64,000 nt of DNA. Origin: Chthoniobacterales bacterium. GTDB lineage: Bacteria > Verrucomicrobiota > Verrucomicrobiia > Chthoniobacterales > UBA10450. The stretch is from NCBI GenBank assembly GCA_045809795.1, contig JBJMXD010000005.1:225177-289176 (forward strand), given 5' to 3'. Positions 10,667-47,757 of the stretch are shown one piece after another. Positions within the stretch are counted from its first letter, which is position 1. Every line of letters starts with the position of its first letter. The notes below the pieces were generated by a model. It searched no databases, was not told the origin of the DNA, and saw only the letters and a list, made by a program, of their open reading frames with translations. The position numbers and the translations under genes are program-made.

Positions 10667-10775
10667 AAAAAAAAAGTCCGCCAGAGAACTACGGCAAAGA
10701 GGATCAGACTACCGTTGCTGCATTCCTGCTCTGGCGGGGTTCGTAAGTCCTCAGTCCATAGCCCCTGACGGAAAG
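10667..10775 (-). ncRNA. ffs: Candidate signal-recognition-particle RNA (small bacterial 4.5S type)
   Basis: The minus strand folds into one long hairpin: CCGUCAG/CUGGCGG, CUAUGG/CCGUAG, GAGGA/UCCUC, CCG/CGG, GCA/UGC. It is capped by a GGAA tetraloop flanked by CAGA and AGCA internal-loop strands (compare E. coli CAGG...GGAA...AGCA). A U9 tract follows. Confidence 0.55.
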
Positions 10776-13251: not shown

Positions 13252-13737
13252 ATGGAGTTTCGCCGTCAGAAGGATTGCCTCGAGATCACCGAGGTGGATC
13301 CTTTTTTGGCGGAACTGCTGCGGCAGATCCCAGAGAGCTGCAACGTCGAGGGAGTCGAGACCGCGCAACAACGGATCTTCAGCACTCCGGCGAAAGAACA
13401 GGAAATCTGCGCCGAGTGGAAGGTGTATGTCGAACCGGAACTGCGCCGGTTATTCCGCTCCGCGACGGAGACCGTCGAAGCTGATCTCCAACAACTGGAC
13501 GGCTGCACGAAGCCCTTCGCGAATTGTACCCTGCGGATCCCGGCGGAGAATGCCCAGGCCTGGTTGAATGCGCTTAATCAAGCGCGGCTCGCCATTGCCG
13601 CGAAATACAACTTCACTGATGGCGAACTGTGCGACCATTACCGGTCACCGATCGGTTCCCGGCGTGACCTCGGCCTGTTCCAAGTAAATTTCTACGGATT
13701 TCTCCAGGAATTCATCCTCCAGGACTTGGAGATTTAA
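13252..13737 (+). CDS. Hypothetical protein tightly linked to clpS (DUF2017-like by position only)
   Basis: 161 aa, starting 4 nt after the clpS stop. Family not verified. Confidence 0.55.
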   Translation: MEFRRQKDCLEITEVDPFLAELLRQIPESCNVEGVETAQQRIFSTPAKEQEICAEWKVYVEPELRRLFRSATETVEADLQQLDGCTKPFANCTLRIPAENAQAWLNALNQARLAIAAKYNFTDGELCDHYRSPIGSRRDLGLFQVNFYGFLQEFILQDLEI

Positions 13738-13750
13738 GCCGCGCCAGCGG

Positions 13751-13850
13751 CTTCATGCTCTTGCTCGTGATCATGATCCTGATCTTCGAGTGAGGTGCTT
13801 CTCCCCACGAAAGATCATGAGCACGATCAGCATCAGGAGCAGGAATGAAG
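13751..13850. repeat. GATC-hexamer palindromic element, copy 1
   Basis: Left arm CTTCATGCTCTTGCTCGTGATCATGATCCTGATCTTCG, 20-nt spacer, and an inverted right arm ending AGGAGCAGGAATGAAG. Contains 5 GATC sites. Confidence 0.8.
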
Positions 13851-13857
13851 ATAGCGC

Positions 13858-14094
13858 TCAGCTCTTCTGACGATTCCGCACCATCGTCATCAAGCGGTCT
13901 TTGAGCGCGTCGGACGATTTGGCCGGTCGCAGGCTCAGGGCGAACGCTTCGTGCATCGAGTAGCACTTGCTGATGAAATCTTCTGCCTTTTGCCCAAAAT
14001 CTTTTCGGGCCTCTTCAAACGCTTCCAGTTCTTCCGGTTCCAAAGCCCCTATCACGTAGAGGCGCGATTGGTTCTGGAATTCGTCAAAGCTCAT
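13858..14094 (-). CDS. Putative short anti-sigma factor
   Basis: 78 aa from ATG at 14094 (MSFDEFQNQSRLYVIGALEPEELEAFEEARKDF...). It overlaps the 3' end of the ECF sigma gene. No TM segment. Confidence 0.5.
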   Translation of the reverse strand: MSFDEFQNQSRLYVIGALEPEELEAFEEARKDFGQKAEDFISKCYSMHEAFALSLRPAKSSDALKDRLMTMVRNRQKS

Positions 14095-16107: not shown

Positions 16108-16200
16108 CTTCATGCTCTTGATCATGATCTTGCTCTTGATCCTGTGAGCCAGCGTCGCTTTCACAAAAGATCATGAGCAGGATCACGATCATGAGCATGA
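16108..16200. repeat. GATC-hexamer palindromic element, copy 2
   Basis: CTTCATGCTCTTGATCATGATCTTGCTCTTGATCCT ... AAGATCATGAGCAGGATCACGATCATGAGCATGA. Contains 6 GATC sites. Arm mismatches fall on every sixth base. Confidence 0.85.
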
Positions 16201-27311: not shown

Positions 27312-27414
27312 CCCCATTCCTGCTCTTGATCATGATCATGATCGTGCTCCTGATCTTCCGAGAAAGCGTCGGCCGAGGATTATGATCATGATCAGGATCA
27401 TGAGCATGAAGGGG
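27312..27414. repeat. GATC-hexamer palindromic element, copy 3
   Basis: CCCCATTCCTGCTCTTGATCATGATCATGATCGTGCTCCTGATCTTC ... GAGGATTATGATCATGATCAGGATCATGAGCATGAAGGGG. Contains 7 GATC sites. Confidence 0.85.
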
Positions 27415-45854: not shown

Positions 45855-45890
45855 TCGCGGCTTCGGCGGTCATAGACCGCCGCTACAGGA
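45851..45890. repeat. REP-like unit (family R1, right half intact, left half degenerate)
   Basis: CGTAGTCGCGGCTT-CGGCGGTCATAGACCGCCGCTACAGG. Confidence 0.65.
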
Positions 45891-45895
45891 AAGGC

Positions 45896-45993
45896 CTTCC
45901 TGCTCCTGATCTTGATCTTGCTCATGATCTCGTGAGCGGGCATGGCCGTTTCCATGGATCAGGATCATGATCAAGAGCATGAGCACGAAGAAG
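45896..45993. repeat. GATC-hexamer palindromic element, copy 4
   Basis: CTTCCTGCTCCTGATCTTGATCTTGCTCATGATCT ... GGATCAGGATCATGATCAAGAGCATGAGCACGAAGAAG. Contains 6 GATC sites. Confidence 0.85.
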
Positions 45994-47684: not shown

Positions 47685-47757
47685 TGCACCGCGTTGGAAT
47701 CGAACCAACAACCCAGTGATTAAGAGTCACTTGCTCTGCCAATTGAGCTAGCGGTGC
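47685..47757 (-). tRNA. tRNA-Lys (anticodon CUU)
   Basis: 73-nt cloverleaf read by hand. Acceptor GCACCGC/GCGGTGC, D stem GCTC/GAGC, anticodon stem AGTGA/TCACT with loop CTCTTAA, and T arm GTTGG-TTCGATT-CCAAC. No encoded CCA. Confidence 0.9.

Follow-up and report, generated by a model that had tools for sequence, protein, structure and literature searches.

Hexamer-array palindromes between the genes of a soil Verrucomicrobia genome are probable gene-less copies of the stem of a four-helix-bundle cassette

Four hexamer-array palindromes and their families in the source genome

The 64-kb stretch of DNA analyzed here (the window; positions 225177-289176 of contig C5 in the source genome, G000) belongs to a 3.7-Mb, 95% complete assembly of a soil member of the Verrucomicrobia with 58% G+C. 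It contains four GATC-rich palindromes, denoted c1 to c4, which are built of TGMTCN hexamers as inverted arrays and were confirmed at the sites given in the original prediction (Table 1). A search for four consecutive units (TGMTCNx4, with at most one mismatch) returned 17 matches in the window, all 17 within the four elements, and none in 100 dinucleotide-preserving shuffles of the window that served as the chance control for hexamer arrays. The inverted arms are 34-45 nt long, 77-82% complementary and 1-27 nt apart, with several possible pairing registers shifted by 6 nt. The GATC sites number 5, 6, 7 and 6 per element, that is, 24 in about 400 bp, the same counts as before, and the hairpins, as anticipated, are predicted on either strand to consist of 5-bp helices with single mismatches between them (-40 to -56 kcal/mol, z-scores of -2.5 to -7.5). 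Each of the four copies closely follows a stop codon, again as described. The inverted-array design thus stands, with three details revised. The conserved ends are TTCM...KGAA, not CTTC[AC]...GAGCA[TC]GAAG; the places of the elements hold, with the best-defined boundaries being those of Table 1; and the spacer, once taken to be unrelated to the arms, continues the palindrome as YTKKGAG...CTCAMAR, with a weakly conserved GCGWCG at its center.

The element c1 occupies a convergent gap, folds at -42 kcal/mol on both strands and has one decayed unit (gcatca) in its right arm. In c2, all five A/C positions are complementary between the arms, four of the five sixth bases are mismatched and the remaining one forms a T-G wobble; the predicted fold has -55 kcal/mol and a z-score of -7.3. 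The element c3 (-56 kcal/mol, predicted) is squeezed between two co-oriented genes, with the upstream stop codon and the next predicted start each 7 nt off. The element c4 (-45 kcal/mol, predicted) separates a small membrane-protein ORF from a co-oriented gene of 554 aa, and a GTAG-type REP-like palindrome (cggcttcggcggtcatagaccgccgctacagg) that lies outside family A, defined below, abuts the element, which shows that palindromes stack in one gap. An Rfam scan of the elements gave nothing at the gathering threshold and two meaningless sub-threshold microRNA matches (E 0.1-0.5). The sole gathering-threshold Rfam matches in the window were an SRP RNA and a tRNA.

Table 1. Positions of the palindromes, cassettes and RNA genes discussed in the text. 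Positions without a contig prefix refer to the window.
Feature	Position	Strand	Details
c1, family A gene-less hairpin	13753..13844	none	left arm 13756-13785, right arm 13812-13841
c2, family A, best-preserved copy	16110..16200	none	left arm 16113-16142, right arm 16168-16197
c3, family A	27318..27409	none	left arm 27321-27356 (six units), right arm 27377-27406
c4, family A	45898..45988	none	left arm 45901-45930, right arm 45956-45985
GTAG-type REP-like palindrome abutting c4	45856..45886	none	outside family A
SRP RNA	10676-10770	-	49.6 bits
tRNA	47685-47757	-	68.6 bits
Family A cassette between gap and pgk	G000:C6:1636653-1637136		arms at C6:1636658 and C6:1637101
GTGACN cassette	G000:C6:1363939-1364396		PF05635 gene
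GTGACN solos	G000:C5:37971, C5:141494, C6:194885, C6:1359339, C8:135776		five gene-less inverted arrays
Family B hairpin with nested palindrome	G000:C8:207446-207587		

A census of such arrays in the whole genome, conducted with regular-expression and nhmmer searches, assigned the window elements to a family (family A; modal length, 91-92 nt) that numbers 52 full copies. A sister family (family B) has 19, along with partial copies and single arms. The consensus of family A is TTCM (TGCTCN TGATCN TGATCN TGCTCN TGATCN) YTKKGAG..GCGWCG in the left half and ..CTCAMAR (NGATCA NGAGCA NGATCA NGATCA NGAGCA) KGAA in the right half; family B has the form ttcgTAATCG TGCTCG TGCTCC TGCTCG TGATCG ... plus its inverse, and the modal arm comprises five units in both. 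Within the family A unit, the T, G, T and C are near-invariant, the third base is restricted to A or C and the sixth is almost information-free, an invariance that is partly built in because the copies were picked by similarity.

All 52 copies of family A and all 19 of family B are located between protein-coding genes, with marginal overlap with predicted genes. Classified with the calls of a simple ORF and codon-score caller, the family A gaps include 21 tandem, 16 convergent and 15 divergent ones, compared to 65, 18 and 18%, respectively, of all gaps in the genome. The facing stop codons have a median distance of 13 nt, with 31 of 52 distances at most 15 nt, and the facing start codons one of 39.5 nt. 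Target-site duplications were not seen by eye, nor were flanking direct repeats, at the 52 family A boundary pairs, and neither the elements nor their immediate neighborhood contained a recombinase; by these two marks, no transposition mechanism was identified for the gene-less copies. The earlier suggestion of a repeated, REP/MITE-like family of intergenic palindromes is supported, with 52 full copies in this genome and representatives in most genomes of the genus. Literature searches retrieved papers on intervening sequences (IVSs) and REPs and no description of these elements or of the cassettes considered below, in agreement with the first impression that the family had not been described.

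The arm pattern is present in 17 of the 18 sampled genomes of the genus and in none of the 12 from other families of the order, so that, among those sampled, the family is confined to one genus. The named public matches are metagenome-assembled genomes (MAGs) of Chthoniobacterales, 'Spartobacteria' or Verrucomicrobiota from soil and peat. Arm-pattern matches in other phyla were rejected as elements, being one-armed, coding-like His/Asp arrays. The exception is a typical family A palindrome in contig JAVHWA010000080.1 (locus L073), assigned to Acidobacteriota BP_23; the sample series that yielded this contig also gave several Verrucomicrobiota MAGs, and the element may reflect mis-binning or transfer.

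A four-helix-bundle cassette with the same arms

One family A copy, located outside the window between gap and pgk, encloses an ORF of 147 codons' worth of protein (147 aa). Its 30-nt arms, with 413 nt between them, have the family A five-unit order TGCTCN TGATCN TGATCN TGCTCN TGATCN, and the stop codon of gap lies 7 nt ahead of the left boundary. The encoded protein matches PF05635, the family of the 23S rRNA intervening-sequence protein S23p (E 2.5e-22), and the TIGR02436 four helix bundle protein family (E 5e-21), as well as PDB 2gsc, the S23p protein of Xanthomonas. The right arm is translated in frame as the C-terminal tail DQEHDQDHEHD (...YGYDRDQEHDQDHEHD), and hence each hexamer represents two codons, GAK-CAN, encoding (D/E)(H/Q). 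GATC in the arms is an Asp codon followed by a His or Gln codon (GAT-CAN), and GAGC is a Glu codon followed by His or Gln. The proviso in the original prediction that the copies could turn out to be parts of His/Asp-rich coding genes therefore applies in part: the gene-less copies are non-coding, but their arm is the homolog of a translated stretch, the C-terminal (D/E)(H/Q) tail of the four-helix-bundle gene enclosed by one copy.

In G000, the ATG of pgk is formed by the final bases of the right arm (C6:1637125-1637140; GAGCATGAC). In most of the orthologous cassettes at this site (loci L036-L054), the stop codon of the four-helix-bundle gene overlaps the ATG of pgk (ATGA), an arrangement that suggests translational coupling inside gap-4HB-pgk.

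Ten genes in G000 match PF05635 above the family cut-off, and nine of these, for which both flanks are readable, are each flanked by inverted arrays of a 6-8-nt unit particular to them (GTGACN, TTGAGAG, TCGAAAA, GGGATTT, TGCTCT and others). The same duality of gene-bearing and gene-less forms was found for the GTGACN hexamer, with one PF05635 cassette and five gene-less inverted arrays (Table 1). The four-helix-bundle gene is the only cargo found inside A, B or TGCTCT arms, save for one family B hairpin. The loop of that exceptional hairpin holds a GTAG-type palindrome (ttgtagagcgtttgtgtcagacgc...gcgtttcacagaaacgccctacaa), a nested insertion. Taken together, the elements are probably the hairpin stem of a PF05635/TIGR02436 four-helix-bundle cassette in gene-less ('solo') form, and comparison of the arms shows the solo stem, at the level of sequence, to be that of a cassette of the IVS kind.

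The gap-pgk cassette occupies the same site in about 20 genomes, with 68-90% protein identity to that of G000. Eleven genomes combine A-type arms with a DQEHDQ-type tail and eight combine B-type arms with an EHEQEHEHDY-type tail; one of these eight (G010) retains an A remnant beside the B left arm, and the cassette of G005 is mixed, with an A-type left arm and a B-like right arm. The flanks of the cassette in G012 are the closest to those of G000 (91% and 87% identical), yet this cassette is B-type whereas more distant genomes carry A, so that the ORF and its arms switch as one unit at a fixed site. Judged by their arms, both solo families of G000 match the arm types of this one cassette. In all 11 genomes with an A-type cassette, A arms outnumber B arms, and genomes with a B-type cassette are mixed, a comparison in which the relatives are not independent and which is confounded by phylogeny. 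One 96% complete genome (G049) contains many solos without a close ortholog of the cassette. The link between the solos and the cassette protein is correlative only. The residues that separate the A-clade from the B-clade proteins were listed; interpreting them would take the structure of a complex.

Turnover, constraint and competing explanations

The sites of c1 to c4 differ in content among the genomes of the genus. Six genomes (G000, G012, G035, G011, G002 and G004) carry family A at the c1 site, and G018 has a decayed copy there; three (G001, G032 and G005) have a gap of 24-49 nt without an element, and six others contain different hairpins or periodic palindromes. Family A was found at the c2 site in G000 and G008 only; a GTAG-type palindrome takes its place in the closest relative, G012, and the gap in G013 and G017 is 17-20 nt. 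Five genomes (G000, G012, G035, G014 and G018) carry family A at the c3 site, where G011 carries family B. The c4 element recurs in G012 and G011, is decayed in G018 and is lacking from G035, where the gap measures 41 nt. These differences in presence and absence indicate that the elements are gained, lost and replaced, and that the same gaps are reused, with flanks too diverged between genomes for exact insertion ends to be read.

Other repeats are common in these gaps. The gap orthologous to that of c1 (window positions 13726-13869) is occupied by palindromes of 7-8-nt units (CGTTGAAG/CAACCCTT) in G003 (L018), G013 (L029), G017 (L026) and G014 (L013), with 14 tandem CAACCCTT units in G003, and in G035 remnants (gttgaagcgtt) adjoin the family A copy. 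The site orthologous to that of c2 in G018 (L015, G018:C20:2300-5200) is a 503-nt intergenic stretch made of two copies of a composite of about 240 nt, in which several different palindromes are combined. A second family, of GTAG-type REP-like palindromes (ctgtagcggcggtctatgaccgccg..., ctgtagccgcttcgctgtgcgaagcg...cgacggctacag) unrelated to the hexamer arrays, fills many of the same gaps (L024, L025, L002, L014 and L021).

Within the arms, the sixth bases of the two sides are independent of each other: among the 26 canonical copies, Watson-Crick pairs account for 27 of 130 combinations, where base frequencies would give 36. At the A/C positions of the same copies, the arms match in 92 of 130 cases, largely because both arms share the order CAACA. 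There are 34 pairs that are one transition away from Watson-Crick (C-A and T-G combined), where about 22 would be expected. The bases most frequent at the sixth position of partner columns are complementary, and at most positions the consensus sixth base of the solos is that of the cassette arms. From these patterns, we infer an ancestor that was a near-perfect foldback, in which the sixth bases decayed later.

Orthologous solos, identified by synteny at the c1, c3 and c4 sites, differ pairwise at 8.1% of pentamer positions, 54.8% of sixth bases and 39.2% of loop positions, and their flanking genes differ by 13-26%. The contrast between pentamers and sixth bases is inflated, given that repeated units align in any register, but the units are visibly intact in most orthologous solos despite this inflation. 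The constraint, as far as these alignments indicate, is on the repeated pentamer sequence and not on pairing. If selection acted just on the stem, one pentamer would not be fixed with every sixth base left free. Under gene conversion, the sixth bases would move together with the pentamers, and coding does not account for the pattern, as only GAT and GAG are used in the arms, although GAC and GAA are equally common in genes (52% of Asp codons and 56% of Glu codons, respectively, in this genome). A test for strand bias of G-U pairs detected none (family A, 10 vs 11 copies, p 0.69; family B, 8 vs 2, p 0.13), and in tandem contexts the sense and antisense strands fold equally well, so that nothing marks RNA over DNA as the active form.

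Host-serving explanations were weighed against this background. The hairpins might be chiefly 3'-end structures, either bidirectional terminators or mRNA-stabilising stem-loops, a role that has been proposed for REP/BIME sequences, with only a historical link to the cassette. Their very stable predicted folds, their position a median of 13 nt past stop codons and their enrichment in convergent gaps (16 of 52 elements vs 18% of all gaps) all fit such a role, as does the convergent c1 gap, which in other species is filled by hairpins of quite another kind, as though one were required at that place. Nevertheless, direct reading of the bases that follow the four stems (ggaatgaaga, tgatttgctc, tgaaggggtc and cgaagaagaa) reveals no U-tract, and 21 of the 52 copies reside in tandem, operon-like gaps, several of them less than 15 nt from the next start (c3 and the gap-pgk cassette), a setting in which efficient termination would shut off the gene that follows. 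The 15 copies in divergent gaps, the empty gaps of 17-49 nt at these sites in some relatives and the freedom of the sixth bases beside a fixed pentamer also speak against it. We consider this explanation unlikely overall, and the terminator role raised in the original prediction is, in its classical form, likewise unlikely. A small coding function fares much worse. Both arm frames are open by construction, the inward frame, with (M/L/V)(I/L) repeats, stops at a loop TGA in c1, c2 and c4, and the outward frame, with (D/E)(H/Q) repeats, is the translated tail in the cassette; however, the solos have no consistent start codon (any of the four bases can precede TG), the choice between His and Gln or between Met and Leu/Val falls to a sixth base that drifts at a neutral rate, overlap with predicted genes is marginal and the arms keep to GAT and GAG against the codon usage of the genome. 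That the arms encode peptides is thus extremely improbable.

Mobilization by the RAYT-like Y1 transposases of the genome, which would make the elements REP/REPIN-type repeats, draws on 10 Y1_Tnp matches in the genome and on the abundance of GTAG-type REP-like palindromes in the same gaps. The association was rejected on distance, as the nearest hexamer element to any Y1_Tnp gene is at least 1.5 kb away and mostly more than 20 kb; furthermore, the elements are about 91 nt long with a period of 6 and lack the GTAG/CGTC tag of REPs (PMC3733652), and the sole gene found between arms is the four-helix-bundle gene. We regard this origin as very unlikely. As for the arms serving as arrays on which a GATC-reading system (Dam, a SeqA-like protein or MboI/DpnII-type restriction-modification) docks, an idea put forward with the original prediction, the 24 sites in about 400 bp of the four elements are indeed dense, and GATC is 2.2 times commoner in the genome than base composition predicts. 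That over-representation was dropped because it disappears under a trinucleotide Markov model (30554 sites vs 30222 expected). Moreover, a search of the 95% complete genome for PF02086 (Dam) and PF04556 (DpnII), the two families covered, gave no match, although control genomes did; the conserved unit is GAKCA, in which GATCA and GAGCA are freely interchangeable and of which family B mostly has GAGCA; and the GATC itself comes from the GAT-CAN codon pairs of the cassette tail. Docking of a GATC reader is, on this evidence, scarcely credible.

Proposed mode of action and comparison with known systems

If the elements are solo copies of the cassette stem, they would have arisen from cassette arms as near-perfect foldbacks and then spread as selfish DNA, with a preference for sites just after stop codons and for gaps already holding hairpins. 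When transcribed, solos would fold into long imperfect hairpins that may act like ORF-less IVSs or REPs, as processing or stabilising sites and probably as substrates of RNase III, rather than as GATC signals. The sequence-specific constraint with a period of 6 suggests that a protein recognises the repeated pentamer, a role for which the resident four-helix-bundle protein is the obvious candidate. The Xanthomonas S23p homolog is a pentameric toroid (PMC4990558), and one could imagine, by analogy, that each subunit of such a homopentamer reads one GAKCA/TGMTC pentamer of a five-unit single-stranded arm, leaving the sixth base unread. This proposal draws on the period-6 constraint, the modal number of five units and the arm type and protein clade traveling together; we offer it tentatively and consider it quite unlikely. 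The likeness is to TRAP, which reads spaced triplets. If true, such a reading would give the large PF05635 family of unknown function its first ligand, and would explain why each cassette has tandem-repeat arms of its own and why the solos have kept their pentamers.

Four-helix-bundle genes of the PF05635/TIGR02436 type are very common in bacterial genomes and have, to our knowledge, come to notice in two guises only, as the puzzling ORF of rRNA IVSs and as relatives of Avd, a component of diversity-generating retroelements. The genus studied here is a compact natural system, with one conserved cassette in the glycolytic gap-pgk operon, two arm types with matching tails and dozens of solos under a clear period-6 constraint, in which it becomes testable whether the protein binds its own arms, whether the hairpins serve as RNase III sites and so shape operon mRNAs and how an rRNA-IVS-like element spreads between genes. 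There are also two lessons for annotation: dense GATC clusters need not mean Dam biology, and His/Asp-rich tails on these proteins are translated stem sequence.

Like MITEs, the solos are short, non-autonomous-looking inverted-repeat elements akin to a longer, gene-bearing form. Unlike MITEs, they show no target-site duplication (52 copies), their longer form contains no transposase, and they are mostly stem instead of terminal inverted repeats around unrelated DNA. The REP/BIME/REPIN palindromes are 20-40 bp long and GTAG- or CGTC-tagged (Di Nocera et al. 2013, PMC3733652). In common with these, the elements described here are high-copy extragenic palindromes located past stop codons, variable between relatives and stacked in gaps. 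They differ in being three times longer (91-92 nt), with the ends TTCM/KGAA and no GTAG/CGTC tag, in having tandem-hexamer arms and no flanking RAYT, and in that the partner gene encodes a four-helix bundle, not a Y1 transposase.

ORF-less IVSs of about 100 nt occur in the 23S rRNA genes of Salmonella, Yersinia and Campylobacter. The solos resemble them in size (about 90-110 nt), in being plain extended hairpins without a gene and in having the same relation to an ORF-bearing form, and are unlike them in being intergenic and multi-copy, with period-6 arms, and in lying in neither helix 25 nor helix 45. For the ORF-less 23S rRNA IVSs, the study of Warrier et al. (PMC4990558) cites Burgin et al. 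1990. The ORF-bearing 23S rRNA IVSs, which carry the S23p ORF, are found in Coxiella burnetii, Leptospira and Xanthomonas (Warrier et al. 2016, PMC4990558). RNase III excision has been shown for these, and the stems described here are predicted folds. Further differences are that neither the 52 family A and 19 family B copies nor the cassette sit in the 23S rRNA gene, where an IVS occupies helix 25 or helix 45, that the cassette between gap and pgk overlaps the pgk start and has its right arm translated as a tail, and that dozens of gene-less copies lie between ordinary genes. In both systems, however, terminal inverted repeats form a long stem around a PF05635 ORF, a likeness that concerns the full cassette, the window copies being ORF-less, and in both the stem region contains short tandem repeats, heptamers (GACAGAT) in Coxiella and hexamers here.
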